From: Deltaproteobacteria bacterium TL4
GTDB taxonomy: Bacteria; SAR324; NAC60-12
Direction: 5' to 3'
Length of the DNA: 20,388 nt
Assembly (NCBI GenBank): GCA_051382335.1
Contig: JBBCAX010000293.1
Span: 1 to 20,388, forward strand
The notes beneath the pieces were generated by a model. The model saw only the letters and a list, made by a program, of their open reading frames with translations. It was not told where the DNA came from and did no database searches. Made by a program: the position numbers and the translations under genes. This document shows positions 1,442 to 19,842 of the stretch, piece by piece; position 1 is the stretch's first letter; each line of letters starts with the position of its first letter.

Positions 1442-2344
1442 ATGAAATATCAATTTTCTATATTAAATACTTCAAAGGGGTATTTTTTTAAAAATTTTAC
1501 TTATCCGGTTTACCAGTCCGTCTTAATGCGGACAGATCTTGGTGAACCTCAGACCCCTGTTCTGGCGATAGGAGTGCTGGATAAAAACAAACCGATCGGT
1601 TTGACGATTGCGAATATTGACAAAAATGAAAAAAAAGCGGATCTTCTTTCCGTTTTTGTTGAAAAGGCTTATAGACGGCAAGGGCTTGCGACACAACTCA
1701 TTGAGGCTGTGGAAAAGGCCTTAAAAGAAAAAGGCTGTGAGCAATTTCGTGCGGATTATGAAACAGGAAGACCGATCACGTCAACCTTGGAAGGATTGTT
1801 GGGAAAAACCGGTTTTCCTAAAGCTAAGGCTCTCGCCTTAATCGGCCGGTGCCATGATATTCGTAAAACCAATATCCCATGGGTTGAAAAAATCAGAGTT
1901 CCCTCAGCGTTTGAAATATTTCCCTGGACTGAGCTAAAACCGGAAGACAAAGAAAAGCTTGAGCGCCATAAAGGGGATCTCCTGTGGTACTCTGAAACCT
2001 TGTCACCGTTTCGGGATTCAGCGATTTTTGAACCTTTGACCAGCGTCGGGTTACGTCACAGACAGGAAGTGGTTGGATGGCATATTACTCATAGGATTGC
2101 ACGGGATACCATTCGTTATACCGCCGTTTTTGTCAGGAAAGATCTTCAACCCTTTGGACTGATTTTCCCGTTGCTGGGGACCTCAATTCGTTTGCAAATT
2201 GAAAATAAGGATGAATTCTTAAAAAAAATTACCTTTATGGTTTTTGTGGAAAATGAAGGGATGTCAACCTTCATGAAAAAAAGAATGAAACCACACCTTG
2301 ACGAATTGAACGAATCTATGCAATCAATAAAAATAATTGGGTAG
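1442..2344 (+). CDS. GNAT-family acyltransferase, tandem GNAT-like domains (type associated with NHLP/Nif11 RiPP clusters)
   Basis: Motif A LSVFVEKAYRRQGLATQL in the N-terminal domain. A second, degenerate GNAT-like domain reads VVGWHITHRIARDTIRYTAVFVRKDLQPFG. RBS AAGGA precedes the ATG. Confidence 0.88.
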   Translation: MKYQFSILNTSKGYFFKNFTYPVYQSVLMRTDLGEPQTPVLAIGVLDKNKPIGLTIANIDKNEKKADLLSVFVEKAYRRQGLATQLIEAVEKALKEKGCEQFRADYETGRPITSTLEGLLGKTGFPKAKALALIGRCHDIRKTNIPWVEKIRVPSAFEIFPWTELKPEDKEKLERHKGDLLWYSETLSPFRDSAIFEPLTSVGLRHRQEVVGWHITHRIARDTIRYTAVFVRKDLQPFGLIFPLLGTSIRLQIENKDEFLKKITFMVFVENEGMSTFMKKRMKPHLDELNESMQSIKIIG

Positions 2345-2416
2345 AACTCGTGAGGAGTGAGCGTCTGTTTCTCACCTCTGTTGAGGATAAAATTTCAATG
2401 TGGAAGATAGGAAAAA

Positions 2417-2659
2417 ATGGAACAATTACAAGAAGAAATTAAAGCAATATTAGCAAGTTTGTTTGGCGTTTCTGCAGACGAAATTACTCCAGATGCTAAT
2501 TTCGTTGATGATTTAGGCGCAGATTCGATGGATGCGCTGGAAATCATAATGCGTATGGAAGACAAATATCAGATTACGGTAGATCAGGGGTGTTTGCCAG
2601 AAATGACCAATTTACGCAAAGTGACGACCTTGGTTCAATCGCTTTTGCAGGCAAAATAA
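2417..2659 (+). CDS. Stand-alone acyl carrier protein
   Basis: 80 aa, acidic, with the phosphopantetheinylation motif FVDDLGADSMDALEIIMRMEDKY. RBS AGGA. Confidence 0.93.
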   Translation: MEQLQEEIKAILASLFGVSADEITPDANFVDDLGADSMDALEIIMRMEDKYQITVDQGCLPEMTNLRKVTTLVQSLLQAK

Positions 2660-2678
2660 TACAACTTTTACCGAGACC

Positions 2679-4406
2679 ATGTTTGTGAAGAATCTACAAC
2701 AAAAAATACCGTCTACATTATTGTGTCTTTCCTTGGGTTTCCTCTTGAGCGTTTTTTTCGTGTTCATCGCGTCGCCTTCAATGGCACAGGATGATTTTGA
2801 AGAGGACGTAGAGAGCGTTGACACGGGCAGGGGGTTGAGTATTCTGGACTCGATTCAATTAGCCTTGTCGAGAAATCCGAATATCCAGATGCAAGAATTG
2901 CAAATTCAAGTAGTCAGGGGGCACATTCAACAAGCCAAAGGAATCTTTGATCTGACGTTTAATTCATCGGTGAGTCAGGGCTCCGCATATACGCCCCTAT
3001 TATCGGAAACACGCGATCAATTGCAAAAGCAGGAAGATGAACAAAAACAATTTCAATTGCTTTTCAAGGAATCAGGGCCGCCATTTTCAACAATTGCGTC
3101 TTATTTTTTTACCGATGAGGCTTCCAGTCAAAAAATACGAAACGCGGCGGTAACCCATACGAGGACTTTCAGTTTCAGTAGTGAGAAACGTTTTGAAACA
3201 GGCATCCTTTTCAGTCCCGTGCTCGAAGTCACTCAAGTTGAACAGCAAGCCTTTAATCCGAAAGATGATCCTGACCCCTTGAGTCAAGGGACTCTTTCCT
3301 TTGTGTTTCGCATCCCGGTACTTCAAGGGTGGGGAAGTGATGTAAATGGAATAGGGGTAAAGAGCGCTGAAAGCTCAGAGAGATCCAGTATCTTTGATCT
3401 TCAACATACGAACAGTGAAGCGATTCTTCAGACGGCTATCGCTTATTGGGATTATTGTGCCGCCCAAAAGATCTTGGAAATTCAGAAGGAGTCCAAAGAT
3501 CAGGCCGATTTGTTTTTGGAGCAGCTCAAGATCCTGGTCAAAGAAGGAGAACGTCCTAAAACGGATTTAAAACAACTGACGGCAAACCTTGCGGATAAAC
3601 TCACGAATGTGATTGCGGCAGAACAACAATTGCTCGATTCCAGACAGCAATTGGGAATTACGATCGGACTTCCTTTCAAACAAATAAGCACCTTGCCGCC
3701 TACAACGGATACTTTTCCTGAGGTTCCTGAGGATCTCAATCTTGATCAGCAAATCTATATCGACTATGCCTTGAAAAGACGTGCGGATTTGAAAGCCTTA
3801 AGGGAACGTAAGCACTCCTCGGAATTGATAAAAGTGGCCGCGCAGAAAAATGTCAAACCGCAATTGGACACCACGGTTAGCTTTGGCGCCATTGGTATTA
3901 CAAAAGGAAATGGAACCGGGGACATTATCAATTCTGTCTTGAATAATCAAGCAGGGCCTAATGTCCTGGGTACGGTTTCCTTTCGTTGGCCTATTGCCAA
4001 TAATACAGCTTATGGAATGCTGGAAAGCGCAACGGCTTCCTATCAACAAGCGGCAATTTCCATACGTCATCTGAAGCGAACCATTCGCTCCGGTGTGGTT
4101 CGCCGAATATCGGGCTTACTCAGTACCATTAAAAAATATCGGCAATCGGAGTTTGCTGTCGCGCAAAACCGTGAGGCGGTGGAGATTGAGCGAGAAAAAT
4201 TAAAACTGGGCTTCTCGACTACTTTAAACGTTACGGTGGCACAGGATCGACTGACTTCCGCGTTAATGGGATTTATTTCCATTCAAAGAGAGTATGCGCT
4301 TTCTCTACTGTTACTGCGTTATGAAACCGCAACCCTGGTAGATCTTGCGGATGATCGATACATCATCAACAGGGAGCATATGTTTTCGGTTCCTTTCGTT
4401 GAATAA
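2679..4406 (+). CDS. TolC-family outer membrane efflux protein
   Basis: Signal peptide ending ASPSMA-Q. OEP repeat motifs LSILDSIQLALSRNPNI, AIAYWDY, ALKRRADL, PQLD, EREKLKLGFST. Confidence 0.9.
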   Translation: MFVKNLQQKIPSTLLCLSLGFLLSVFFVFIASPSMAQDDFEEDVESVDTGRGLSILDSIQLALSRNPNIQMQELQIQVVRGHIQQAKGIFDLTFNSSVSQGSAYTPLLSETRDQLQKQEDEQKQFQLLFKESGPPFSTIASYFFTDEASSQKIRNAAVTHTRTFSFSSEKRFETGILFSPVLEVTQVEQQAFNPKDDPDPLSQGTLSFVFRIPVLQGWGSDVNGIGVKSAESSERSSIFDLQHTNSEAILQTAIAYWDYCAAQKILEIQKESKDQADLFLEQLKILVKEGERPKTDLKQLTANLADKLTNVIAAEQQLLDSRQQLGITIGLPFKQISTLPPTTDTFPEVPEDLNLDQQIYIDYALKRRADLKALRERKHSSELIKVAAQKNVKPQLDTTVSFGAIGITKGNGTGDIINSVLNNQAGPNVLGTVSFRWPIANNTAYGMLESATASYQQAAISIRHLKRTIRSGVVRRISGLLSTIKKYRQSEFAVAQNREAVEIEREKLKLGFSTTLNVTVAQDRLTSALMGFISIQREYALSLLLLRYETATLVDLADDRYIINREHMFSVPFVE

Positions 4407-4510
4407 ATGCATCCTTAAAAACTAAGGTTAATGTCTTTAAATCAGGACCGAGTTAATACCTCCATTCTATTCGTTTTTTTTCAATTTTTGTGTTTTTGTA
4501 AAGTGATATT

Positions 4511-5767
4511 ATGCGGCAACATATTTTTAGAAAAACATCGCTAGAACGTTTGTCCTCACCTGAACAACTGGATCAGTTGATGCAGATCACAACGCCTAAA
4601 GGCTGGTTCTCTTTGATTGCCTTAAGTTCCTTGCTGTTTGTGACGATCCTCTGGGGGATCTTTGGCATGATTCCAACTAAAGTTAACGGACAAGGTATTT
4701 TGATTAAAAAGGGAGGTATCTTGAATATTGTCTCAATGAGCAGTGGGCAAATTTCGGATATCGCGGTAGTTGTGGGAGATCTTGTGGACAAAGGTCAAAC
4801 GGTTGCCAGAATTTCACAACCCTCCATTGTGGATCAACTTCGTAGTGAAAGAGCTCGTTTACAGGATCTGCAAAGTCAAGAAACCAGTATCCTCAGCACT
4901 AGTGCGAAAAGTGTACAGAAAAGTTACGAGGTCTTGGATCAACAAAAAGCAAACCTCACTAACAGTATTGAGATTGCAGAAAAAAACATAAAGTCCTTGC
5001 AAGAAAAAATTCAAGGACAAACACGGCTTTTGACGAAAGGCCTGATCACCAAACAGCAATTGGAAAACACCAAACAGGAATTCTTTGCGACACAACAACA
5101 AATCGAACAGCAAAAAAATCAGATTAACGAAATTGAAGTTCAAAAATTGAAATTAGGAGGCAGCAAAGAACAAGAACGGCGTAATCTCGTGATTCAAATG
5201 AATGAAGTCAAAAGAACCGTTGAGATCCTGGAGGACCGCTTAGTGCTCAACAGTCGCGTGGTGAGTCCCCATCGAGGAAGAATCATAGAAATACGAGCAG
5301 ACGAGGGAAGCATTGTTGGAACAGGTGCCCCCATTTTAAGCTTGGAGCGAATCAGCAAGGAAGAGGCCTTAACCGCGGTGATTTATGTGCCTCCTACTGA
5401 AGGGAAAAAAGTCCGCATGGGGATGAATGTCGGGATCTCTCCCTCAACGATAAAAAGGGAAGAGTTTGGTGTTATGAAAGGGAAGGTGACTTATGTTTCA
5501 AAATTTCCATCCACATCCGAAGGGATGATGAATGTGATCAAAAACCATGAATTAGTCCAGAGTTTATCAAGGGGGGGAGCTCCTATTGAAGTTCATGTAG
5601 ATTTACTTCCCGACGAAACAACCTCGAGTGGGTATCAATGGACTTCATCCAAAGGCCCCTCAACCAAGATCTTTAGTGGAACTATTTCGACCGCCTCTAT
5701 TGTGGTAAGCGAACAACGTCCTATCGGATTGGTTATTCCTTACCTCAAAAGTGTTGTGGGTTTTTAA
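4511..5767 (+). CDS. NHLM bacteriocin system secretion protein (HlyD-family membrane fusion protein)
   Basis: Diagnostic N-terminus IFRKTSLERLSSPEQLDQLMQIT, one TM helix, a coiled coil, and C-terminal SGYQWTSSKGP...RPIGLVIP. Confidence 0.95.
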   Translation: MRQHIFRKTSLERLSSPEQLDQLMQITTPKGWFSLIALSSLLFVTILWGIFGMIPTKVNGQGILIKKGGILNIVSMSSGQISDIAVVVGDLVDKGQTVARISQPSIVDQLRSERARLQDLQSQETSILSTSAKSVQKSYEVLDQQKANLTNSIEIAEKNIKSLQEKIQGQTRLLTKGLITKQQLENTKQEFFATQQQIEQQKNQINEIEVQKLKLGGSKEQERRNLVIQMNEVKRTVEILEDRLVLNSRVVSPHRGRIIEIRADEGSIVGTGAPILSLERISKEEALTAVIYVPPTEGKKVRMGMNVGISPSTIKREEFGVMKGKVTYVSKFPSTSEGMMNVIKNHELVQSLSRGGAPIEVHVDLLPDETTSSGYQWTSSKGPSTKIFSGTISTASIVVSEQRPIGLVIPYLKSVVGF

Positions 5768-5803
5768 AAAGTTATATTTTGTGGCAGTTTACCTATAAAT
5801 CCT

Positions 5804-8071
5804 ATGAAACCGATTGAAAATATTAAAACAAAAGTCGCTGTCAAAGCCAAAAAAGGTCCACTAGGGAAATGGTTAGAGCGCACCTTCCAATTGAGTCGTC
5901 TCAAAACACCTACGGTCTTGCAAATGGAGGCTGTCGAATGTGGTGCCGCATCCTTGGCTATTATTCTGGGATATCATGGGAAGATTGTGCCCTTGGAAGA
6001 ACTGCGAATTGAATGCGGTGTGTCCAGAGATGGCAGCCGTGCTGATAACGTTTTAAAAGCGGCGCGTAAATATGGACTCATTGCCAAGGGGTACAAACAT
6101 GAGCCTGAGGATTTGATTCAGTTCCCTTTGCCGCTGATTGTGTTTTGGAATTTCAATCACTTTGTCGTTGTTGAAGGTTTTGCGGAAGGCCGAGTTTATT
6201 TGAATGATCCCGCCTCAGGACCAAGAGTTGTCACGTTTACAGAATTTGACGAATCCTTTACCGGGGTTGCTCTTGTTTTTGAAAAAGGTGAAAATTTCAA
6301 GACTGGTGGCGAAAAGAACAACCTCCTTGCCGCATTAAGAAAACGCCTTAAAGGTTCGGAATCCGCACTGACTTTTGTGGTTTGGGCTGGACTGGCTTTG
6401 GTCATTCCAGGCTTGGTCATTCCCATTTTTACCAAAGTCTTTGTTGATGAAATTTTGATTGGCGGATTGAATGACTGGTTGAAACCGCTACTCTTTGGCA
6501 TGACGCTTACCGCCATTCTGCGTGCTGGCTTTATGTGGCTGCAATCCTATTATCTGTTACGTTTTCAGACCAAACTGGCCTTAAGTTCTTCAAGTCAATT
6601 TTTTTGGCATGTCCTTCGTCTGCCCATTGAATTTTTTCAGCAACGATTCGCCGGAGAGATAGGGTCACGAGTTGCCATTAACAACAAGGTTGCGGGGGTT
6701 GTCTCCGGTCAATTTGCCTCAACCATACTGAATGTGATCATGATTGTCTTCTTTTTCATTCTGATGCTGGAGTATGATGTTTCGATGACGCTTTTGGGCG
6801 TTGTGGTCGCGTTGATCAACATGGGATGTTTGAAATATGTCTCTCGTATTCGCATTGATGCCAGTCGCAAATTACTTCAGGATCAGGGGAAACTCACCGG
6901 GATTTCAATGGCGGGATTGAGTAATATTGAAACGATCAAAGCGACGGGAGGCGAGTCTGATTTTTTTTCGATGTGGGCTGGATATTATGCCAAGGTTATC
7001 AACGGGGATCAAAAACTGGGAATTGCTTCGGTGTATTTATCAGCAGTTCCGCCTTTACTCTCAGGACTGAATAATGTCACCATTCTGATGATGGGCGGGT
7101 TTTTGGTAATGGATGGGAAAATGAGCATTGGAATGCTCGTGGCGTTTCAAAGTCTCATGTCCAGCTTTATCGGTCCTGTCAATAGTCTGGTTGGTTTAGG
7201 CAGTATGCTGCAAGAGTTGGAAGGCGATATGAACCGCTTGGATGACGTCTGGCGTTATGAGCAAGATCCTCAATTTAAACATGATATTAAAATACATGAG
7301 GTCAAAGAAATAGGACGTGAAGGGAACTCCGAGGGGGACATCCATCGTCTTACGGGACATGTGGATATCCGCGGATTGTATTTTGGCTATTCCAAGATGG
7401 GGGAGCCCTTAATCAAAGATTTTAATCTGTCCCTTGATCCCGGAAGCCGAGTAGCGTTGGTGGGTCCGTCTGGATGCGGAAAATCTACCATCGCGAAGAT
7501 CGTCGCGGGACTTTATACTCCGTGGGAGGGAAACATTTATTTCGATTCAAAGAAAAGAGAAGAAATTCCCAATGCGGTCTTAAGAAATTCAATTGCGATG
7601 GTGGATCAGGATATTTTCATGTTTGAAGGAACTATCTATGAAAACCTGACGATGTGGAATAAAACAATTCCTGAATTTCATATCCATCAAGCCGCAAAAG
7701 ATGTAGGGATTCATCAATTGATCTCAACACGCTCTCACGGATATGAAAGTCCCATTGAAGGCATCGGGCATAATTTTAGCGGAGGGCAGCGTCAATTACT
7801 GGAAATTGCCAGATCTCTTGTGATTAACCCCAATATTTTAATCTTAGACGAAGCCACAAGTGCCTTGGATCCAAAGACCGAAAAGTTTGTTGATGATAAT
7901 TTAAGACGACGGGGTTGTACCTGTTTGATTGTGGCTCATCGCTTGAGTACCATTAGAGATTGCGATGAAATACTCATCCTTCGTGGCGGGAAAGTGGTTC
8001 AAAGAGGAACTCATGAAGAAATGATAAAAGATAAAGCCAGTCCTTATGCACAACTGATTCAAGCGGAATAA
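5804..8071 (+). CDS. NHLM bacteriocin system ABC transporter, C39 peptidase/ATP-binding subunit
   Basis: KTPTVLQMEAVECGAASL (catalytic Cys), FWNFNHFVV (His), YLNDPA (Asp), a TM domain, Walker A GPSGCGKS, signature FSGGQRQ, Walker B ILDEATSALD. Confidence 0.96.
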   Translation: MKPIENIKTKVAVKAKKGPLGKWLERTFQLSRLKTPTVLQMEAVECGAASLAIILGYHGKIVPLEELRIECGVSRDGSRADNVLKAARKYGLIAKGYKHEPEDLIQFPLPLIVFWNFNHFVVVEGFAEGRVYLNDPASGPRVVTFTEFDESFTGVALVFEKGENFKTGGEKNNLLAALRKRLKGSESALTFVVWAGLALVIPGLVIPIFTKVFVDEILIGGLNDWLKPLLFGMTLTAILRAGFMWLQSYYLLRFQTKLALSSSSQFFWHVLRLPIEFFQQRFAGEIGSRVAINNKVAGVVSGQFASTILNVIMIVFFFILMLEYDVSMTLLGVVVALINMGCLKYVSRIRIDASRKLLQDQGKLTGISMAGLSNIETIKATGGESDFFSMWAGYYAKVINGDQKLGIASVYLSAVPPLLSGLNNVTILMMGGFLVMDGKMSIGMLVAFQSLMSSFIGPVNSLVGLGSMLQELEGDMNRLDDVWRYEQDPQFKHDIKIHEVKEIGREGNSEGDIHRLTGHVDIRGLYFGYSKMGEPLIKDFNLSLDPGSRVALVGPSGCGKSTIAKIVAGLYTPWEGNIYFDSKKREEIPNAVLRNSIAMVDQDIFMFEGTIYENLTMWNKTIPEFHIHQAAKDVGIHQLISTRSHGYESPIEGIGHNFSGGQRQLLEIARSLVINPNILILDEATSALDPKTEKFVDDNLRRRGCTCLIVAHRLSTIRDCDEILILRGGKVVQRGTHEEMIKDKASPYAQLIQAE

Positions 8072-8129
8072 ACGATATCCTCATAATTGTTAAAATCTGA
8101 TTTTAAAACCATTTTTGATAAAGATTGTC

Positions 8130-11045
8130 ATGCAAGACTCTCAAACATCCCAAGGCTCAGGACAGACAACCGATTTGTTTTTGCCTGTTTCGGGCAACAC
8201 ACCTTTTTTGTTAAATAATTATGATGGAGTCTTTATTATTCAATCCGGGGACGTGGATGTTTTTTCAGTAAGGGTTCATAACGGGGAGAGTGAAGGACCC
8301 CGGAACTATTTGTTCAGCCTCAGCGAAGGCGATGCTTTATTTGGAATCAGATCACAGTTATTGGGACAGTATTATGGTATTTTAGTGGTTGGAAAAAGAG
8401 GAACCACGCTTTTACATTTGCAGGAATTTCTTTTACACCAAATGTCCGAAAGTACCGACAACCACTTGAAAATCATTAACTGGGTTGACGGATGGATTAC
8501 CGCTTTATCCGAAAGTGTTGTTCGTGGAATTCCTCCGAAAACTAATATTAAATTTGAATACGATCAGGAAATCCATTTAAAACCTAAAGAAATCCTGTAC
8601 TCTCCTTCGAAAATGTTTTGGATCCGACCTTTGGAAGGGTATTTGTATTTTACCGGACAAGAAGAGTTGCCCCCTATCACTCCGGATCATATCTGCCCTA
8701 TTTGTCCTACGACATGGCTCAAAGCCGGAGATCAGTGCAGTGTGTTTGGTGTCGATACCCAAAGATTGTTGTTTCAAGGGATATTATGGGAAACCATTGA
8801 AGCTTCACATGAACTGATGCTGACCTATATTGTTTCAAATATGGGAAAGTCTATCCAGGATGAAAAAAATCGGTTAAATCAACAAGAACGGAATACCCTT
8901 CATGTTATTGAAGAGACGCTTTCAAACGTCGTTTCCATCCTGAATACGGATTCCAATCAAGCCTTCACGGAAGAATCCTCCGAGGACCCATTTTTTAAAG
9001 CGTGCGAAAGAATAGCTTCGTTTTTGGGTGTTCAGATTGAGGAGCCCCCTTCACACAAGAATAAAACGCTTCCTGATGCCGAAAAATTGTTCAACATTTC
9101 TAAAACTTCCCGTTTCCGGACCCGACGCATCATTCTGCGTGATGACTGGTGGAATACAGATAATGGCCCCCTGTTAGCAAAAATGGAGGAAGATAATCGT
9201 CCTGTCGCCTTAATCCCTGCTGGGGATAAAAGTTATATTCTTTATGATGAAGTCAACAAGGTACAATATCCTGTCAAAGATAAGGTTGCCGCGAAGATCG
9301 TTCCTTTTGCCCATATGTTTTACCGATCCTTTCCGAATGAAGTCCTTGATGTTTGGAAGTTGCTCAAGTTCGGACGTCAAGGCTGCATGGGGGATATCCT
9401 AACCATAGGTGCGGTAGGAACATGTAGCGGTATTCTGGGCATGTTGGTTCCTATTGCCACAGGCTTGATCTTTGATTCCGTTATCCCCGGTGCCCAGAGG
9501 GGACAAATGGTTCAGTTGGCCTTAGCCTTGTTTGCGAGTATTTTTGCCACAGCGCTGTTTGGTTTGACAACCTCGATTGCCATGCTGAGATTAGAAGCCA
9601 AAATGGGAAATCCAATGCAGGCGGCTGTATGGGATCGGCTTTTGAATTTACCGACTTCCTTCTTTAGAAAGTTTTCCGTTGGAGATTTGAGCCAGAGAAG
9701 TAATGGGATCACGGCCATACAAAACACCTTGACGGGTGCGGCTTTAGCTTCGATTATGGGAAGCTTCTTTTCTTTGTTCAGTTTTGGACTACTTTTTTAC
9801 TACGATGTGACGCTGGCCTTAGTGGCCCTGCTACTGGTTACGGTGATGTTGAGTTCCACGTTGCTCATTGGAATTTATCAAGTGAAGTATCAACGAGTTT
9901 TGCTGAACTTAAGTGGAAAAATCGCGGGGATGGTGTTGCAGTATGTGACGAGCATTGCCAAGTTGCGTGTTGCCGGAGCCGAAAATTTCGCCTTTGCCAC
10001 CTGGTCCAAGGAATATATGAAGCAAAAGAAAATTGCTTTTAATGTCGGTCATGTTTCTAATGCCTTTTCTATTTTCAATGGAACGTTCCCCATTATTTCT
10101 TCAATGACTATTTTTTCCATGATGAGTCTGACTGTAGAGAACACCATCAGTACTGGAGAATTTCTCGCGTATAATGCGGCGTTTGGCAATTTTCAATCCG
10201 CAATGTTGAGCATGGCCAGTTCCGTAATAGCCGTCATCCGAATCATTCCGCTTTATGAAAGAGCCAAGCCCATTTTAGATACCTTGCCTGAAGTGAGTGC
10301 TGATAAATCCTCTCCTGGAGTGCTTTCAGGAGAAATCGAAGTCAGTCATGTTTCGTTCAGATATAATCCCACGGGACCGTTTACACTAAGGGATATTTCG
10401 TTGCAGATTAAACCGGGCGAATTTATAGCGTTTGTCGGTCCTTCAGGCTCAGGTAAATCAACCCTGTTGAGGATTTTACTGGGCTTTGAAACCGCTGAAT
10501 CCGGTTCGGTTTACTATGATGATCACGATATAGCGACGATTGACCTTCAAGCTTTACGACGTCAATTAGGGGTTGTTTTGCAAGAAGGAAAACTCATGCA
10601 AGGTGATATTTTCAGCAATATTGCTGGTGCCTCAGGTGCAACCTTGGAAAATGCCATGGAAGCCGCGAGAATGGCAGGTTTTGATTCGGATATCAAAGAC
10701 ATGCCGATGGGGATTCATACCATTGTCAGTGAAGGCGGAACAACCCTTTCAGGAGGACAGCGGCAACGGTTACTCATTGCGCGGGGATTGGTTCACAAAC
10801 CTAAAATCTTATACTTTGACGAAGCCACCAGCGCACTGGATAATCAAACTCAAAAGTTGGTGACTAGTAACCTGGAAAAACTTGAGGTTACCCGCGTTGT
10901 CATCGCACATCGGTTAAGTACCATCATCAATGCGGATCGTATTTATGTGTTTACTGCGGGAAGAGTGGTTCAAGTGGGAACCTATCAGGAGTTGTTAGAG
11001 GAAGAAGGAGTTTTTTCAGAGTTGGTAAAACGACAAATGTTATAA
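8130..11045 (+). CDS. NHLM bacteriocin system ABC transporter, second ATP-binding subunit (long N-terminal extension, no peptidase Cys motif)
   Basis: LRDDWWNTDNGPLL, QAAVWDRLLNLP, Walker A GPSGSGKS, LSGGQRQ, FDEATSALDN. The N-terminal ~270 aa look cNMP-binding/cupin-like. ATG at 8130 is preferred over TTG at 8115. Confidence 0.94.
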   Translation: MQDSQTSQGSGQTTDLFLPVSGNTPFLLNNYDGVFIIQSGDVDVFSVRVHNGESEGPRNYLFSLSEGDALFGIRSQLLGQYYGILVVGKRGTTLLHLQEFLLHQMSESTDNHLKIINWVDGWITALSESVVRGIPPKTNIKFEYDQEIHLKPKEILYSPSKMFWIRPLEGYLYFTGQEELPPITPDHICPICPTTWLKAGDQCSVFGVDTQRLLFQGILWETIEASHELMLTYIVSNMGKSIQDEKNRLNQQERNTLHVIEETLSNVVSILNTDSNQAFTEESSEDPFFKACERIASFLGVQIEEPPSHKNKTLPDAEKLFNISKTSRFRTRRIILRDDWWNTDNGPLLAKMEEDNRPVALIPAGDKSYILYDEVNKVQYPVKDKVAAKIVPFAHMFYRSFPNEVLDVWKLLKFGRQGCMGDILTIGAVGTCSGILGMLVPIATGLIFDSVIPGAQRGQMVQLALALFASIFATALFGLTTSIAMLRLEAKMGNPMQAAVWDRLLNLPTSFFRKFSVGDLSQRSNGITAIQNTLTGAALASIMGSFFSLFSFGLLFYYDVTLALVALLLVTVMLSSTLLIGIYQVKYQRVLLNLSGKIAGMVLQYVTSIAKLRVAGAENFAFATWSKEYMKQKKIAFNVGHVSNAFSIFNGTFPIISSMTIFSMMSLTVENTISTGEFLAYNAAFGNFQSAMLSMASSVIAVIRIIPLYERAKPILDTLPEVSADKSSPGVLSGEIEVSHVSFRYNPTGPFTLRDISLQIKPGEFIAFVGPSGSGKSTLLRILLGFETAESGSVYYDDHDIATIDLQALRRQLGVVLQEGKLMQGDIFSNIAGASGATLENAMEAARMAGFDSDIKDMPMGIHTIVSEGGTTLSGGQRQRLLIARGLVHKPKILYFDEATSALDNQTQKLVTSNLEKLEVTRVVIAHRLSTIINADRIYVFTAGRVVQVGTYQELLEEEGVFSELVKRQML

Positions 11046-11064
11046 ACTGAAATTAAGGATTATT

Positions 11065-12216
11065 ATGCGAATACTGCAGGGGTTAGGGATCATCGTGTTC
11101 CTTCTGTCAATCATATCGTGTGACTTGTTTCAACAAGCCTACCGGGGTGCTGATTCTGAGGAAATTGTCATTGGTGTGGCAGGTCCCTGGTTGGAACTTG
11201 CGCAAAAAAATAGTCACTTGCTCGATGGCATCACCATGGCGGTTGATGAAATTAACGCAGAGGGTGGTATTTTGAATAAACAAATCCGGATGGTGCGTAA
11301 AGATGATAAGCAGTCTGTTGATTTGGGCCGTTTGATTGCGAAAGATTTTGCGGATGATCCCTCTATGATTGCGGTAATTGGACATGTTGACTCATACGTC
11401 ACACGTGCGACCTCGGCGACTTACGAATTTTCAGGCATGTTGATGCTTTCACCCACGTCTACAGACCCTGTTATTTCGGAGCAGGAATTCAAGTATATTT
11501 TCCGTAATATCCCAACTGATGAAGAGATCGGAGTACAAATTGCTGAGTTTGCGAAGACTCAGGGGCATAAACGGATGCTGATTTATTATGTTAAGACGGA
11601 ATATGGACGCAAAATGGCAAATACCTTTGAGAAAAGGGCGGAAGAACTGGATATTTTCATTGTGGACCGGCTTTCTTACACGGATGTGACGGAGCGTAAC
11701 TTTAGAAGAGTCTTAAACGGTTGGAAAGATCGGGAGTTTGATGCCATCATGCTCATTGGTTCTTTGCCCCAAGCCGCAGCCTTTGTCAAACAGGTTCGAC
11801 AAATAGGTATCAAAAGTGCCATTATCGGTTCAAACGCCTTGGATGAACAAGAACTCATCGATCTTTCAGGGGAAAATTCGGAAGGTATGATTGTTGCGTC
11901 AACTTTTCATTCTGAGAATCCCCGGCCGTCAGTTAAAGCGTTTAGCGAGGCTTTTTCAAAAAAATATCAAATTCAACCCGATAGTTGGGCCGCACAAGGT
12001 TATGATGCGGTTAAATTACTTGAGGAAGCCATCAAAAAAGCGGAAACTGTTGACCCTGCTGTCGTCAGTGAAACCTTGCGGAACTTAAAGGATTGGTCAG
12101 GGGTTACTGGAAACCACACCTTCACCTCCAGCGGCGATGTCAGCAACAAACCCATTGTATTTAAAATAATTCAAAAAGGGAAATTCACTTTTTTAAAAGA
12201 ATTTATCAATAATTAA
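11065..12216 (+). CDS. Branched-chain amino acid (LivJ/LivK-like, type 1 PBP) substrate-binding protein, probable lipoprotein
   Basis: GITMAVDEINAEGGI, AVIGH, LSPTSTDP, YIFRNIPTD, AAQGYDAV, GVTG..TF...GD. Lipobox-like LLSIISC at the N-terminus. Confidence 0.9.
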   Translation: MRILQGLGIIVFLLSIISCDLFQQAYRGADSEEIVIGVAGPWLELAQKNSHLLDGITMAVDEINAEGGILNKQIRMVRKDDKQSVDLGRLIAKDFADDPSMIAVIGHVDSYVTRATSATYEFSGMLMLSPTSTDPVISEQEFKYIFRNIPTDEEIGVQIAEFAKTQGHKRMLIYYVKTEYGRKMANTFEKRAEELDIFIVDRLSYTDVTERNFRRVLNGWKDREFDAIMLIGSLPQAAAFVKQVRQIGIKSAIIGSNALDEQELIDLSGENSEGMIVASTFHSENPRPSVKAFSEAFSKKYQIQPDSWAAQGYDAVKLLEEAIKKAETVDPAVVSETLRNLKDWSGVTGNHTFTSSGDVSNKPIVFKIIQKGKFTFLKEFINN

Positions 12217-12238
12217 CGACCTGCTTTGAAGGACTTCT

Positions 12239-13312
12239 TTGACGATTAGGAAAGAATTACTAAGCTCTTTAGGGGTCTCTTTGTCTGTCGTTGAAGAACT
12301 CCTGTCTTATAACCGCAATCATTTTAAACATCCGTCGTCCATCACTTCCCGATATGGACTCCCCTTAAATGATGAACTTTTCGTGGAAGCATGGAAAAAC
12401 TATATCCAGGAAAGTAAGGAGGGTTCTGTTTTTGAGGTTCTTCGTCAAAAATTGATTCAATTTCAGTTTCCCATTCAAAAAGGCATCAGTGATTCCATCC
12501 CTTACCAAAAAGCCATAAAAACAGGGATCCTTCCTTCAAATCTTGCAAATCCTCTTCAGTTACGTGATCCTCAGTTGTTGCAATTAGAACTCTATCCCTC
12601 ATTAGCAGGTCATATTCCTCTCATCAGCACTCCCAATAAGGACGATTTTTTTCGAATGGTACAAGCGTTAGCCTTAAAAAATGAACCGCATCCCTTCCCA
12701 AATTCGATCGGTGCCGTGATGATAACAGGTTATAATAATTGGGATCGGTTGAGAACAGCAAAAGCCTCAAGTCCCGATCGTTTCATCCTCTTAACTCAAG
12801 GAAATTACAGCGGAGTCTCTGCCGCAGAAATTGAAATGAATGACAAGGATTGGAAAACGGCGTCCAGAATCATCAGGTTGGAACACGAGTGTACTCACTA
12901 CTTAACAAAACGTCTTTTAACTTCAATGCAAAATAATCCATTTGATGAGTTAATCGCAGACTTCATGGGAATCACCTCCTATGCTCAACGTTATCACTCG
13001 AAGTGGTTTCTGCGCTTTATGGGCCTTGAAGCTTATCCTCAGGTCAGAGCAAACGGGCGCTTACACTTTTATCGGGGTAATTTATCAGAACCCGCTTTTG
13101 AAAGCTTATGCTTTGTGTTAACACAAGCATCAGCGTCGTTGGAAGATATCGCCAACCCTTTATTGAGTACCTCTGAAAATTTCCGTCTTACTCAAGTTCA
13201 AATCATGATAGCCCTCACGTTGTTAACCCTTGAGGAAATAGCCTTTGACGAACAGCGCTCTTTCTTTTGTGCCGCATTTAAAAAAGCCAAACAAAGAGTT
13301 ACATTTCTGTAG
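12239..13312 (+). CDS. DUF7005-like protein with HExxH motif (putative metalloprotein found in NHLP-type RiPP clusters)
   Basis: EELLSYNRNHF, SLAGHIP, GYNNWDR, DRFILLTQGNYS, IRLEHECTHY, SMQNNPFDELIADF, FMGLEAYP..R..GRL..YRG. TTG start with RBS GAAGGA. The family name is from recall. Confidence 0.75.
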   Translation: MTIRKELLSSLGVSLSVVEELLSYNRNHFKHPSSITSRYGLPLNDELFVEAWKNYIQESKEGSVFEVLRQKLIQFQFPIQKGISDSIPYQKAIKTGILPSNLANPLQLRDPQLLQLELYPSLAGHIPLISTPNKDDFFRMVQALALKNEPHPFPNSIGAVMITGYNNWDRLRTAKASSPDRFILLTQGNYSGVSAAEIEMNDKDWKTASRIIRLEHECTHYLTKRLLTSMQNNPFDELIADFMGITSYAQRYHSKWFLRFMGLEAYPQVRANGRLHFYRGNLSEPAFESLCFVLTQASASLEDIANPLLSTSENFRLTQVQIMIALTLLTLEEIAFDEQRSFFCAAFKKAKQRVTFL

Positions 13313-13887: not shown

Positions 13888-14745
13888 ATGGAAAAGAGAA
13901 TTCTGGTTCCTATTGATTATTCAGGAGTGAGCAAAAAAGTCCTTACCTTTGCGGATGAGTGGTGTCAACGAACGGGTGCAACCTTATTCATTTTATATGT
14001 CACGGTCATCCGTTATACGGATTATCCCGAAATCTGGAATAAAAAAGAGCAAAGATTAGAATTTCATCGTGAAGAGTTAAAGGCCTTTGTTGAAGCGCTT
14101 AAACTCAAATCAAACGTCCAACTTTTGAATGATGTGGGGGTTGCTTATGAGCAAATTCTTAGAGCTGAAAAAGAGCATCATATCGACCTGATCATCATGG
14201 CGGCACATTCCCACACCATTTTGGAACGAATGTTTTTGGGGAGTAATACAGATCAAATCTTACACCAGTCTCAATGCCCTGTCTTTGTTTTCAAAGATCC
14301 TGACAGTAAGTTAAAAAATAAAATCATACTCCCGATTGATAATAATGAAGTGGATCAATATGTGATCCAAAAAGCGGATGAGTGGGCCCTAAGAACCCAT
14401 TCCACCTTATATTTTATTCATGTCTATTCCCCTTTTGCCAATCCCTTTGAGCCCTCTATTGCAGAGCACCCTCCTCAATTACTCACACTGGAATTGGATA
14501 TTAAACTCAATGAGTTTATTTTAAGCCAGAATGTTAAATCGCCTTATCGTACCATTATCAAGAAAGGAAAGCCGTATGATCGGATCCTGAAATTACAGAA
14601 GAAACAAAAGGCCAATTTGATCATGATGGCAGCACACTCACATACTCAAATCGAACGGTTTTTGATGGGAAGCAATACGGATTATTTAGCACATCACTCT
14701 TCTTGTCCAATGTATGTCTTCAAAACTCCCAAAATTAAGGAATAA
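13888..14745 (+). CDS. Universal stress protein, two tandem USP domains
   Basis: KRILVPIDYS ... DLIIMAAHSHTILERMFLGSNTDQILHQSQCPVFV, repeated as KIILPID ... NLIMMAAHSHTQIERFLMGSNTDYLAHHSSCPMYV. RBS GAGGA. Confidence 0.95.
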   Translation: MEKRILVPIDYSGVSKKVLTFADEWCQRTGATLFILYVTVIRYTDYPEIWNKKEQRLEFHREELKAFVEALKLKSNVQLLNDVGVAYEQILRAEKEHHIDLIIMAAHSHTILERMFLGSNTDQILHQSQCPVFVFKDPDSKLKNKIILPIDNNEVDQYVIQKADEWALRTHSTLYFIHVYSPFANPFEPSIAEHPPQLLTLELDIKLNEFILSQNVKSPYRTIIKKGKPYDRILKLQKKQKANLIMMAAHSHTQIERFLMGSNTDYLAHHSSCPMYVFKTPKIKE

Positions 14746-14934
14746 ATAGGTTTTGACCTCAGCCTTTGTTTATCGCTCAAGATTCGTGATGGCAAGGGGG
14801 AGTGATGAACGCTCTCCTCCTCTAGAGCGTTTTTTAAACGGAATCGTCATAGTCCTTTTTATTTGATGAATTATTTGCAGAGGTTATAAGTTTTGACAAC
14901 CTGTTGAATTTTATGATGAGCAAAATACAACAAT

Positions 14935-15339
14935 TACTATAGTGTCAATACCTTGTAGTGATTAACTGGGATGGGTTTGACACCACTTGGTTTGGCTCGA
15001 TTGATGGTGGCCTCCAGACCTTGTTCCACCAGTCGCGCTCTCACATTTTCTACGGTACGAATGGTTACTCCCACGGCTTGACTGATTTGTTCATCTTTCC
15101 AACCTGGGCCTCCCTCTCCTATGTCCGATTGCAGAAGAATTTGAGCATGTAAACGTTTATGAGCCGATGCTTTACCCGTACTCACCAGGGATTGCAGCTC
15201 CGCTCGTTCCGCCAGCGATAATCGTACCCTATATTTCTTTGCCATCACAAACCTCGTTTCCATTGGATTTGATAAAAATTCAGAAAATGAAAACGAGGTT
15301 ACCTCAATTACCCGAAAATTGAAAGCTGACTATGTAGTA
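14935..15339 (-). mobile_element. Internally deleted IS630-family element retaining both ends
   Basis: Imperfect terminal inverted repeats beginning with TA: tactatagtgtca (14935-14947) versus minus-strand tactacatagtca (15339-15327), 10/13 identical. They bracket a transposase fragment. Confidence 0.7.
14937..15245 (-). pseudogene. IS630-family transposase, N-terminal HTH part only (DDE domain absent)
   Basis: MAKKYRVRLSLAERAELQSLVSTGKASAHKRLHAQILLQSD...WKDEQISQAVGVTIRTVENVRARLVEQGLEATINR is a typical IS630 N-terminus. Likely start is the ATG at 15245 with a GAGG RBS. Confidence 0.88.
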
Positions 15340-15424
15340 GGATGTGTTAGCGAGCTTGCGAGCGTAACGCATCAGGCAGATGCGGGTTTATTGATGCGTT
15401 ACGCCTACCGGCTAAACATCCTAC
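15337..15424. repeat. Inverted pair of GTAG-type REP sequences (REPIN-like)
   Basis: gtaggatgtgttagcgagcttgcgagcgtaacgcatca (15337-15374) and tgatgcgttacgcctaccggctaaacatcctac (15392-15424). GTAG/CTAC termini and complementary arms. Confidence 0.85.
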
Positions 15425-15454
15425 TTTGAATAGCTGTCCCGGCTTAAGTGAAGT

Positions 15455-15611
15455 AGCCTGCAGGTACTTGTTTTAGCCACGAAGAACATGAATAAAAAAA
15501 GGAATATTCACAGAAAACATCTGTTTTACGGAATCATTACTTCTGTTTAAAACCCATTTTTTAGTGATCTTAGTGTTCTTCGTGGCTAATTTAGAAACTA
15601 CCTGCACAGCT
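15455..15611. repeat. MITE-like palindromic element
   Basis: Perfect 16-bp inverted repeat ttagccacgaagaaca (15473-15488) / tgttcttcgtggctaa (15574-15589), plus an outer 8-bp inverted repeat tgcaggta (15459-15466) / tacctgca (15599-15606). Confidence 0.8.
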
Positions 15612-15619
15612 CGGAATTT

Positions 15620-15982
15620 TTATGAAACTGGACCAATTAAGCTTTCTAAGGGGATATTTAATTCAGCATGAAGGATTCGAATCATACTAAGTGTCAACTC
15701 TCTTTTTCGATTCAATATTTCTGAAACTCTTCCACTAGAACCCATAAATGGCTCTAAATCTTTTTGTCTTAAGCCCAATTGTTCCATACGAAATTTAATG
15801 GCTTCCACTGGGTCAGGAGAAGCGATAGGAGAATGCTTCTTCTCATAAGCTTCAACCAGAGTTACTAAAACATCCAGCTCATCCCCTTCAGGCGTATCTG
15901 CTTCAGCATCCATCAATTTCTCAATTCTTGCTAAGGTCTTATCATAGTCAGCTTCAGTTTTAATCGGTTCTATCGTAATCAT
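15620..15982 (-). CDS. higA: HigA-family antitoxin (XRE HTH)
   Basis: IKTEADY...IEKLMDA...EGDELDVLVTLVEAYE...PDPVEAIKFRMEQLGL..KDL...GS.GRVSEILNRKRELTL.MIR.LH. ATGA overlap with the toxin gene. Confidence 0.95.
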   Translation of the reverse strand: MITIEPIKTEADYDKTLARIEKLMDAEADTPEGDELDVLVTLVEAYEKKHSPIASPDPVEAIKFRMEQLGLRQKDLEPFMGSSGRVSEILNRKRELTLSMIRILHAELNIPLESLIGPVS

Positions 15983-16281
15983 ATTATCTCCACATCAATT
16001 GCATCATACTGCTGATGACTTCCTATAAAGCGGATATAAATCACGCCATACGGATAGTTGATTTTGACCACTAGGCGATACTTATTACCTGCTATGTTAA
16101 AAACTACTCTGTTTGATTTCAGGACACTTGCACTGCGGTATTGTGCCTTAATATCTTGTGGCGATTTCCACACAGATTTAGCTGCCTCCTTGTACCATAT
16201 TTCAAGAGCAGATTTGGCATCCTTGTATTTGGGATCACTTTCCCAAAATTCTATTAACGTTCGTTTTGCGATCACTCTCAT
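15979..16281 (-). CDS. higB: HigB-family toxin (RelE-like mRNA interferase)
   Basis: MRVIAKRTL.EFWE...W.SPQDIKAQY.SAS....RVVFNIAGNKYRLVV.INY....YIRFIGSH..YD.ID. The toxin gene precedes the antitoxin gene. Confidence 0.95.
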   Translation of the reverse strand: MRVIAKRTLIEFWESDPKYKDAKSALEIWYKEAAKSVWKSPQDIKAQYRSASVLKSNRVVFNIAGNKYRLVVKINYPYGVIYIRFIGSHQQYDAIDVEII

Positions 16282-16463: not shown

Positions 16464-17699
16464 TTATGTCAGAAGGGGTTCCTGATGTTTTAGATCCAAT
16501 TCATCAATGAGCGCTTTAATGCGAAAACGGGTTTCCTGTCCCTTGGTACCATCCAGACGTTTAGACAAGTTTGGACGCAATTGTGCCATAGGAAAGTCCC
16601 AATGATACGCCTTGGTATAAAGCAGAATTAACTTGCTAACCAAATCACTCCATTCCTTTTGTGACAGATCCTGAAGGCGAAACAGGTTTAGATCTTTAAA
16701 AGCGTCCCCATAATTTTGTTTAAAATAGGGAATTTCCACCTCGTTCCGTATCCGCGCTTTTTCGTAATCTTCATTTTTTAGTTTTTGAAAAAAATCTTCA
16801 GTAAAGGCAAAAATAGGAAACAGTCCCGCATTCGATGAAGTATTTTTAAACAATTGGTACAGGGTTGAATAACTTTGACTTCGTTGAAGAAGCGACATTT
16901 GGCAAATGGCTTCGCCTTCATCAAATAAAAGCACCCAGCCTTGATAACCCATTTTTTGAAAAAGTAGGGCCAAAGCTCGAAGCATTTGCAGATACGGCTC
17001 CGTACCTTTGCAGTTCAGGGACCCTTCCCGATAAAAAGGAACTTGCCGATATTTGAAGACCTGACGTAAGCGAGTCAGAGGAATATCGAATCCTGATAAA
17101 GATTTTGAAAGCAGATCCGTGAATTCTTTGGGGCGAAAACCGACATGTGTGCTTGATTGTTTCTGTTTTTCCGTAAGCGTCACGTTCTTTTGAACCATTG
17201 CCGTCAATATTGATTTGAAGCGCAAAGGCATTTCTTTCGGAAGAAGGTCCAGCAGATGGTCTTTCAACTCAGGCTGGGTGACTGTCTCTACCTTAAACCA
17301 ATTTTTCCAGCAGACCGCCAGGGAGTTTTTGCTGTCAGGAAACTGTAAATTAGATAGCAATTCCCGATAAATCGTTGTGAAGTTATTGAAAGGGACTTCA
17401 CGGAGATCCAGATTGACCATACTGGTAACAAAGTTTTTTTGTAGCGCCCGATCCTGGATATAAGTGAGCGTATGGGATTTTCCCTGTCCATAAGCACCAC
17501 AAACGCAGTAATGGGAAGAATTTCCTTTGGCGACGTTTTGAAATTCCGCATCCAGGACTTGATTCAAGTGAGACTCATGTGCTGTCAGCAAACGGACAGC
17601 CAGAGAATCAAACAGTCCCTCACGCAGACGTTCCACCGCACGACGCAAAGCAAAGTTGGTTTGTTGAGTCAAGGTTTCCAAAAACAGTGCGTCATCCAT
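16464..17699 (-). CDS. BrxD/DUF2791-like P-loop ATPase (copy 2)
   Basis: RRAVERLREG, Walker A CVCGAYGQGKSHT, MGYQGWVLLFDEGE (Walker B). Likely start is the ATG at 17699 (MDDALF), overlapping the upstream stop as TAATG. Confidence 0.85.
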   Translation of the reverse strand: MDDALFLETLTQQTNFALRRAVERLREGLFDSLAVRLLTAHESHLNQVLDAEFQNVAKGNSSHYCVCGAYGQGKSHTLTYIQDRALQKNFVTSMVNLDLREVPFNNFTTIYRELLSNLQFPDSKNSLAVCWKNWFKVETVTQPELKDHLLDLLPKEMPLRFKSILTAMVQKNVTLTEKQKQSSTHVGFRPKEFTDLLSKSLSGFDIPLTRLRQVFKYRQVPFYREGSLNCKGTEPYLQMLRALALLFQKMGYQGWVLLFDEGEAICQMSLLQRSQSYSTLYQLFKNTSSNAGLFPIFAFTEDFFQKLKNEDYEKARIRNEVEIPYFKQNYGDAFKDLNLFRLQDLSQKEWSDLVSKLILLYTKAYHWDFPMAQLRPNLSKRLDGTKGQETRFRIKALIDELDLKHQEPLLT

Positions 17700-19003: not shown

Positions 19004-19842
19004 TCGCTACTTTTGTTGAAAGAAAGGGAAGTGATTTGACGTTTTTCACCGTCTGGGTCAATCAGCCAAAGTGAGTTGTTTCGTCCTGGTCTCAACGCTA
19101 AACTGTAACCATCCGAAGTTCCGCCTGTATTTGCTTGAAAATAGCACCACAAGTCAATTGAAAATTGCTCCAGGCTGTAACCCTTGAATTTTCCTTTATC
19201 CATATTTTGAAAGAAAAGGTTACTCTGCATTAAAAGCACATGTTCCCGGTAAAAGGTTCGGATCGGCACCAGTTCCCCGACGTTCATTCCAGCATTCTTC
19301 AAAGTCAAGGTATAAGAGGAATACAGGCTGTCAATGAACTCTTGAGGATCAAAAGGACGGTCATAAAGTTGTCGTTTGTATTTTAGAGCGGCGGACACTA
19401 TTTTTTTAGGATCAATCGATTTGAGTTCTTTTTTATTAATGGTGGTGACCCGGCCTGGGAAATCTATCTCACCTTCAATGCCTTTCAAAACATAAAAACG
19501 AGGGAAATCAACCTCAATCGGAAGCTCTGATTCCTGGGCTAAAGTCTTCAACTTTTCAATAAACTCAATCCGATACTGATCCACTTTTTCGTCAGCATAA
19601 TTTAATAACTGCTTGAATATAGGGTCACATTTCTGCAACTCGGGATCCTCCAGCAGTTTTTCCGCAGTCTTGCTCCTCAATAACTCATCTAATTGAAAAA
19701 AGTCTTCACGCTCCGCACCATGAATACATTGGAGAATCGCCTCAACCATTTTTTGGCGACGATTGCTTTCCTGCTGATAGGGTTTAACAATTTCTGACAG
19801 TTTTTCTTGGCTTTCCTGAAGAAGCGACTCATGAGCACTCAT
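19000..19842 (-). CDS. Hypothetical protein, first gene of the ATPase operon
   Basis: 280-aa ORF with RBS AGAGGA upstream and an ATGA overlap with the next gene. Helical N-terminus and alpha/beta C-terminus; no motif recognised. Confidence 0.85.
   Translation of the reverse strand: MSAHESLLQESQEKLSEIVKPYQQESNRRQKMVEAILQCIHGAEREDFFQLDELLRSKTAEKLLEDPELQKCDPIFKQLLNYADEKVDQYRIEFIEKLKTLAQESELPIEVDFPRFYVLKGIEGEIDFPGRVTTINKKELKSIDPKKIVSAALKYKRQLYDRPFDPQEFIDSLYSSYTLTLKNAGMNVGELVPIRTFYREHVLLMQSNLFFQNMDKGKFKGYSLEQFSIDLWCYFQANTGGTSDGYSLALRPGRNNSLWLIDPDGEKRQITSLSFNKSSE

Follow-up and report, generated by a model that had tools for sequence, protein, structure and literature searches.

Introduction

Which peptides are lipidated by an acyltransferase that heads a peptide-export operon, and does the acyl carrier protein (ACP) encoded beside it provide the chain? 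Both questions are raised by positions 1442-13312 of a 20,388-nucleotide contig of Deltaproteobacteria bacterium TL4 (JBBCAX010000293.1), which was analysed at its full length and is termed the window; it is the entire contig C293 of this bacterium's assembly (G000; 6.59 Mb, 445 contigs), the marker-based completeness of which is 100%. The operon very probably is the hub for lipidation and export within a dispersed pathway of the selidamide type, a family of RiPPs (peptides that are ribosomally synthesized and then modified post-translationally), in which precursors encoded elsewhere in the genome are acylated on the Lys that follows Gly-Gly (Lys1), cleaved and exported, whatever the role of the ACP.

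A preliminary description of the window listed eight co-oriented genes with short gaps, and every open reading frame (ORF), the gene order and the gaps were recovered. The eight ORFs share one strand and are separated by 72, 19, 104, 36, 43, 19 and 22 bp:

1442..2344, + strand: selidamide-family (KspN/NpuN) tandem GNAT, the predicted acyltransferase for the Lys1 side chain (PF00583, structure model, identity)
2417..2659, + strand: stand-alone ACP of 80 aa with Ser37 in a DSM motif (PF00550)
2679..4406, + strand: TolC-like outer-membrane efflux protein (PF02321)
4511..5767, + strand: NHLP system membrane-fusion protein, MFP (TIGR03794)
5804..8071, + strand: NHLP system C39 peptidase/ABC transporter, C39-ABC (TIGR03796; Cys and His motifs VECG and FNHF)
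8115..11045, + strand: second NHLP system ABC transporter, ABC2 (TIGR03797)
11065..12216, + strand: LivJ-like periplasmic binding protein with a lipoprotein-like N-terminus (PF13458)
12239..13312, + strand: DUF7005 protein with an HExxH motif (PF22541)

Co-transcription of the eight genes is inferred from their spacing only, because a promoter and terminator scan of the window returned nothing above chance level. No precursor peptide gene lies within the window.

A Selidamide-Type Acyltransferase Heading an NHLM Exporter

The first gene encodes a protein of 300 aa in which the PF00583 match is confined to the N-terminal half, and the structure model (predicted local distance difference test, pLDDT, 95) resembles tandem GNATs at 16% identity or less. 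The protein is 33% identical to KspN over 297 aa (E 4e-60) and 32.3% identical to NpuN (WP_012412981.1), full-length relationships that bear out the selidamide connection drawn in the preliminary description. In this comparison, KspN is taken to be CBN59340.1 (P0153), the GNAT of a Kamptonema locus (L018) that also holds a LanM and an NHLP precursor, from the fit of that cluster's core (four Arg, Thr11, Cys19 and Asn20) to published kamptornamide (PMC8784127). A canonical P-loop occurs within the window GNAT's N-terminal domain (approximately residues 79-84) and the loop of the C-terminal domain (residues 235-243) is divergent; a tandem GNAT fold with a clear P-loop in the N-terminal domain only is also the selidamide trait reported for NpuN. 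The npu cluster runs LanM, Nif11 precursor, GNAT, MFP, C39-ABC and ABC2, which means that an NHLM exporter with a GNAT at its head is already known from npu.

In trees built without an ordinary-GNAT outgroup and without the PhaN sequence, the window GNAT belongs to a clade of 12 members (support 0.995) that includes the GNATs of two further loci considered below (L089 and L090). Leu replaces Arg at position 240 in all six members of its subclade, with Arg in 109 of 193 others; Leu240 was considered as a marker of ACP use and dropped, as one ACP-linked GNAT (L040) has Arg and the GNAT of a relative without the ACP (G043) has Leu. Single-sequence searches gave five GNAT matches, three genome loci and three metagenome loci, with no locus among viral contigs, and a profile of the first relatives expanded the family to 1,119 clusters (50% identity) at E 1e-30.

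This larger family is varied. Among 25 long members scanned, six are full LanM-GNAT fusions (P0025, P0054, P0086, P0118, P0137 and P0148) and eight are fused to DUF4915/TIGR03032, others being joined to TPR or glycosyltransferase domains. Many cyanobacterial members adjoin a C39-ABC, frequently with giant ORFs in the vicinity, and no precursor was detected beside them (L015, L023, L025, L026, L028, L030, L033 and L046; P0006-P0149); such precursor-less or fused GNATs could acylate secreted proteins in the manner of HlyC. At another locus (L007:9944-14555), which has no RiPP genes, a family GNAT lies immediately 5' of ORFs of 953 and 186 aa that resemble, by eye, a type III translocator and its chaperone.

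The NHLM export trio of the preliminary description is likewise secure, with the MFP, C39-ABC and ABC2 scoring 394, 1084 and 935 bits against TIGR03794, TIGR03796 and TIGR03797 (cut-offs 156, 853 and 709, respectively). The C39-ABC, which keeps both peptidase motifs, is predicted to cleave at Gly-Gly, and ABC2 carries an N-terminal extension of about 290 aa without a Pfam match.

Precursor Peptides Encoded in Trans

A TIGR03793 search of the G000 genome gave 21 matches. These correspond to nine intact precursors (about 195-220 aa, two NHLP domains per chain) on six other contigs (three on C404, two on C239, and one each on C21, C45, C144 and C385) and to two degraded copies, one frameshifted (C87) and one a remnant (C171). 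Lys directly follows Gly-Gly in all nine, which represent eight distinct cores because two are identical, and in all seven comparable precursors of the relative G043; these counts ignore kinship, related precursors not being independent, and Lys makes up 3-9% of core residues overall. For comparison, Lys1 occurs in one of 24 cores from seven control genomes of the cyanobacterial phylum without a GNAT match, a status that rests on the scoring of five candidates per genome; this control omits G253, G341, G437 and G445, which have no Gly-Gly site by the pattern used, and sets aside G140 (0/9 Lys1) and G449 (0/1), which have a fused or split GNAT match. All nine precursors, each encoded in trans, thus display the selidamide combination of an NHLP/Nif11 leader, Gly-Gly and an N-terminal Lys or Arg.

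The cores are 50-71 aa long and share a GP[LM][LM]xG-like motif; the helical hydrophobic moment exceeds that of 95% of shuffles in six of nine, and five of nine contain one Cys, the rest none. An intact orphan LanM encoded on contig C114, unlinked to the operon, scores 760 bits against TIGR03897, keeps its motifs and is 49% identical to the LanM of G043. It is assigned to class II, its LanKC score being 75 against a cut-off of 575; this score was the check for a class III synthetase, with no separate genome-wide LanKC search made. No YcaO was found in G000 or G043.

Among 88 genomes of the phylum, many of them incomplete, the GNAT and LanM each occur in three, and these are the same three genomes, which also hold such precursors. 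Elsewhere in the phylum TIGR03793 matches only weakly: among 27 loci checked, a nitrile hydratase metal motif is present in 20 and a GG-leader motif in none. NpuN has been reported to acylate Lys1 and no other Lys (PMC13060382), and KspN to prefer, on leader-bearing peptides, whichever Lys or Orn lies closest to the N-terminus (PMC13647313). The nine trans-encoded precursors are the likely substrates of the window GNAT, because Lys1 is present in 16 of 16 cores and the GNAT co-occurs with LanM in three of 88 genomes. The idea of a lipidated RiPP put forward in the preliminary description is upheld insofar as fitting precursors exist in the genome, and needs correction insofar as precursors and LanM lie outside the window.

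Double-NHLP-leader precursors are also found beside LanM in cyanobacterial loci (L008, L014 and L017), and a term search of PMC12537861 gave no mention of tandem leaders. At a further locus (L044:9509-11569), three NHLP precursors with poly-Lys tails adjoin a divergent GNAT, which suggests C-terminal acylation sites.

Identity and Ancestry of the Acyl Carrier Protein

The window ACP is intact and preceded by a purine-rich ribosome-binding site. Its identification as the housekeeping AcpP was rejected: the genome's AcpP (70% identical to that of G043) adjoins FabF on contig C109, and the window ACP is only 30-32% identical to AcpP and falls below the TIGR00517 cut-off, in agreement with the earlier claim that the two are distinct. 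In the ACP tree it joins, as a basal branch, a DSM-type subfamily apart from AcpP (ultrafast bootstrap 87). Like the genome's AcpP, it has Asp two residues past Ser, unlike 12 of 12 subfamily members; a single-sequence search retrieved only the ACP itself. Subfamily members reside in cassettes ordered FabG-FabZ-KSalpha-KSbeta-oxidoreductase-ACP-MMPL (G087 and L171), the G087 cassette being without a GNAT; KSalpha and KSbeta denote what we take to be the paired ketosynthases (KSs) of highly reducing type II polyketide synthases (PKSs). The preliminary placement of the ACP outside any fab or PKS context needs correcting as regards ancestry: the window contains nothing of such a cassette but the ACP, and the relatives of this ACP sit in KSalpha/KSbeta-FabG-FabZ cassettes.

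Two loci join such cassettes to a GNAT of the family. A metagenome locus (L090; CEQE01069783.1) has, in this order, a Nif11 precursor (PF07862), GNAT, FabG, KSbeta without the catalytic Cys, ACP, KSalpha and FabZ. An NHLM exporter and TolC lie back to back with this array, and its ACP is 43.6% identical to that of the window; a further locus (L089) shows GNAT-FabG at a contig end. In the second (L040, of genome G172), KSbeta, FabG, ACP, one ORF, a GNAT and an NHLP precursor with Lys at position 2 are accompanied by LanM and an exporter. FabZ-KSalpha end contig C80 of this genome and KSbeta-FabG-ACP start C149, such that a full cassette likely spans the contig break. With an L040 ACP just 28% identical to that of the window and an L040 GNAT from outside the clade of the window GNAT, this ACP-GNAT association may be a separate recruitment. 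A plasmid search with the L090 KSbeta gave FabF-like matches only. These comparisons point to a dedicated chain-building cassette as the carrier's probable ancestry and to a recurring link with the GNAT family.

Candidates for priming and loading the window ACP are encoded in G000 as two phosphopantetheinyl transferases (PPTases) and nine stand-alone AMP-binding enzymes. The best G000 match to the L090 KSalpha (40%) is a KS on contig C237, where a KS-ACP pair is followed by ORFs resembling, by eye, a type III PKS and a methyltransferase (C237:38544-41647), a separate lipid pathway.

The GNAT:ACP complex check proposed in the preliminary description was passed: the predicted complex scored 0.63 against 0.00 for the best of three controls. 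Of 157 solved complexes, 116 reach the mark, as do two of 215 mismatched pairs; these counts are approximate for the alignments used in this analysis. Agreement between runs extends to at least 91% of contacts, with a partner pLDDT of at least 87. ACP residues 36-48 (including Ser37) and 54-63 contact GNAT residues 147-157, 235-243 and 273-281, all in the C-terminal half, and Ser37 meets Gly239 and its neighbours within the divergent P-loop (235-243). A preprint on NpuN ascribes an open groove to its C-terminal domain and reports no clear coenzyme A (CoA) motif there (PMC13060382). The model supports GNAT:ACP binding without demonstrating it.

Proposed Pathway and Alternative Explanations

In the proposed pathway, the orphan LanM would close one (methyl)lanthionine ring in the five of nine cores that have a Cys. 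A host PPTase would prime Ser37 of the ACP, with either fatty-acid enzymes of the host or an acyl ligase presumably loading it, because KSalpha/KSbeta-FabG-FabZ genes are not in the G000 assembly. The acyl-ACP is modelled to dock by helix II on the C-terminal domain of the GNAT, which is predicted to acylate the Lys1 side chain while the leader is still attached. By analogy with known NHLM systems, the C39-ABC would then remove the leader at Gly-Gly, with export through the ABC, MFP and TolC proteins. The product would be a lipopeptide of 50-71 residues, often amphipathic and likely membrane-active. That the window ACP is the working acyl donor for the GNAT in this pathway is a reading that we favour by a narrow preference.

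Several observations weigh against this reading or parts of it. In the trees, the window GNAT falls in a subclade of its own, outside that of KspN and NpuN, and the proposed His265 of NpuN aligns with Asn271 of the window GNAT, in a mapping whose own numbering puts Glu at 182 instead of the Asp given in the paper (PMC13060382). The precursor of one genome, G045, begins with Ser. The complex model may owe its pass to memory of solved GNAT-carrier complexes and cannot tell the window ACP from AcpP; as AcpP was outside the modelled pairs, the model is silent on ACP dedication. An ACP near the GNAT was found in two of 51 other GNAT loci, several of them cut by contig ends, and the window-type ACP is absent from G043, where the GNAT directly adjoins TolC; the GNAT-ACP-NHLM linkage of the preliminary description is thus not conserved as a rule, and the ACP is missing even from the closest relative, which has the other seven operon genes in two blocks (41-72% identity), LanM and seven GG-K precursors. 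The G000 assembly contains no KSbeta ortholog (best match 29-31%) and no close cassette-type FabG or FabZ, and the three stand-alone KSs checked keep the catalytic Cys. By the R/S rule for hydroxyacyl pools, a 3-(S)-hydroxyacyl chain points to the CoA-bound pool of beta-oxidation. Phaeornamide bears precisely a 3-(S)-hydroxydecanoyl group (PMC8784127), KspN and NpuN use acyl-CoA in vitro, NpuN incompletely (PMC13647313, PMC13060382), and acyl-CoA is the in vivo donor hypothesised for selidamide GNATs by the authors of a 2026 paper (PMC13647313).

Because its relatives sit in KSalpha/KSbeta-FabG-FabZ cassettes, the window ACP may be a relic. The main rival accordingly accepts the dispersed selidamide pathway as real and regards the ACP as the leftover of a lost cassette, with the GNAT drawing acyl-CoA or acyl-AcpP from primary metabolism. 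This explanation, which we consider unlikely though worth serious weight, agrees with an apparent series from full cassette (L090) to ACP only (window) to none (G043), with the lack of a loading KS pair in G000 and with the reported activity of KspN and NpuN on acyl-CoA, yet it must accommodate an ACP that remains intact with Ser37 and a ribosome-binding site, no remnants of cassette genes on either side of it and, should the ancestral order be that of L090, two separate deletions that spared it. The AcpP-like Asp past Ser, a weak sign since it is one residue, would instead fit adaptation of the ACP to host enzymes.

Improbable in our estimation is a second rival, in which the ACP carries a special chain made by unassembled KS/CLF (chain-length factor), FabG and FabZ genes or by the borrowed C237 KS, yielding a side-chain-acylated polyketide-peptide hybrid. 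An assembly of 445 contigs with precursors and LanM already scattered leaves room for missing genes, as do the full cassettes of L090 and, likely, G172, but the marker completeness of G000 is 100%, no Cys-less KS was found there, and the C237 KS has its own adjoining ACP and a type III PKS-like neighbour. Finally, acylation of a non-NHLP target, either type I secretion cargo in the manner of HlyC or a small molecule for self-resistance, is very improbable: a family of more than 1,100 clusters at 50% identity, with many members fused or beside a C39-ABC without a precursor, and the RiPP-free L007 locus lend it some colour, but the exporter here is the NHLP-specific trio, and the 16 of 16 Lys1 cores and the LanM co-occurrence in three of 88 genomes favour the precursors.

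Beyond the reading of the window ACP as the working donor, a broader claim, plausible although a little short of commanding our assent, would define a branch of ribosomal lipopeptides that has so far gone undescribed: a GNAT of the selidamide type would place a chain built by KSalpha/KSbeta-FabG-FabZ on a dedicated ACP onto a Lys side chain. Its full form would be represented by L090 and L040 and its streamlined form by the window, a GNAT-ACP-exporter hub lipidating a genome-wide library of double-leader precursors, with the C-terminal GNAT domain and its divergent P-loop as the carrier docking site.

Accessory Genes and Other Features of the Window

The accessory genes of the operon have counterparts in G043. 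The TolC-like protein is 42% identical to its ortholog there, which comes right after the GNAT, and the LivJ-like protein is 58% identical to a counterpart that also lies between ABC2 and DUF7005; ABC2, LivJ-like and DUF7005 genes remain grouped in G043 (window 11065-13312; L085) though the rest of the operon has moved. A role of the LivJ-like protein in sensing or recapture of the product is a guess. DUF7005, with its HExxH motif conserved, is present in two of the 88 phylum genomes (G000 and G043) and close to NHLM or GNAT genes at three loci (L008, L127 and L129). An Atlas search with it returned DUF7005 clusters, a literature text search for the term gave no match, and folding without an alignment reached a pLDDT of just 36.

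The operon is flanked by other elements. Upstream lie a group II intron remnant (240-486) with an Rfam RF00029 match (402-486; 41.9 bits), 5' of which a short stretch resembles, by eye, the beginning of an intron reverse transcriptase; a roughly 100-bp repeat (151-255), with many copies of 80-97% identity on other contigs, some in inverted pairs, similar to repetitive extragenic palindromes or miniature inverted-repeat transposable elements; and a 212-aa ORF (528-1166) with a charged low-complexity tail, which has no Pfam or NCBIfam match and no paralog in G000. Downstream, a tandem Usp protein and an IS630-like fragment are accompanied by a HigB toxin and a helix-turn-helix antitoxin (13888-16281). 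These are followed on the minus strand by a tandem pair of BrxC/BrxD-family ATPases with an ORF of 280 aa that matches no family (16464-19842), a possible BREX-related defence module.

Significance

Which acyl donor selidamide GNATs use in vivo is still a matter of hypothesis (PMC13647313), and an enzyme of this family that comes with an ACP allows the point to be tested directly. Likewise, the choice of chain length by these enzymes is unexplained, and docking of an ACP offers a reason for the missing CoA P-loop of the C-terminal GNAT domain. In the full-cassette loci, lipidation of a side chain would be combined with dedicated chain building of the goadvionin type, which might allow both halves of a lipopeptide to be gene-encoded, and the dispersed layout implies that neighbourhood-based mining would miss the substrates.

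Comparison with Known Systems

The selidamides (kamptornamide, ksp; phaeornamide, pha; nostolysamides, npu; PMC8784127, PMC13060382, PMC13647313) share with the window system the tandem GNAT family with a P-loop in the N-terminal domain only, NHLP-type GG precursors with Lys1, and LanM; npu also shares the order of GNAT followed by NHLM exporter. In contrast, an ACP stands beside the window GNAT and none was found in the ksp and npu loci (pha being outside the comparison), and selidamide acyl groups are described as coming from primary metabolism, whereas the window has an ACP without a KS pair and L090 and L040 have dedicated genes. The window system further differs in its trans-encoded precursors and LanM, its doubled leaders, its cores of 50-71 aa with zero or one Cys, and its added TolC, LivJ-like and DUF7005 genes. 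Searches of the open literature found no account of an ACP-linked or KS-linked selidamide cluster, although the supplement of PMC8784127, which holds cluster maps, may show such clusters; the term 'ACP' is absent from the main text of either PMC13647313 or PMC13060382 and from the supplements of the latter.

The NHLM cassette of TIGR03794, TIGR03796 and TIGR03797 has been described together with paralogous expansion of NHLP precursors (PMC2887384), and the same trio is found here; the passages searched in that paper contain no occurrence of 'acyl' and do not cover lipidation or ACPs. Type II PKS cassettes with KS/CLF pairs share the ACP subfamily with the window; a KSalpha and Cys-less KSbeta with an ACP are absent from the window and the G000 assembly and present in L090. 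In lipoavitides (LpvE), a RiPP cluster with fatty-acid-type enzymes and a GNAT occurs as here, but their ACP-independent N-terminal acylation with a FabH-made, CoA-bound chain is unlike the prediction for the window (10.1101/2023.10.25.564083).

For the carrier, the preliminary description invoked activation of secreted cargo by HlyC and acyl-ACP, a parallel that gives way to a nearer one, the goadvionin GNAT GdvG, which is ACP-dependent and acts in a RiPP pathway. In goadvionins and lipolanthines a GNAT joins a dedicated chain, built by a PKS or fatty acid synthase, to a RiPP, as proposed here, and GdvG accepts ACP-bound chains only (PMC9811515, PMC8784127, 10.1101/2023.10.25.564083). Those systems employ another GNAT lineage, acylate the N-terminus after leader removal and belong to actinobacterial class III, whereas the window system has a predicted Lys side-chain site on a class II/NHLP precursor; a side chain rather than the N-terminus is predicted because of the Lys1 conservation and the GNAT family. 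In summary, the dedicated carrier resembles goadvionin logic, by analogy and without membership of that family, and the system as a whole is predicted to work like a selidamide pathway, to which its enzyme and its precursors both conform.

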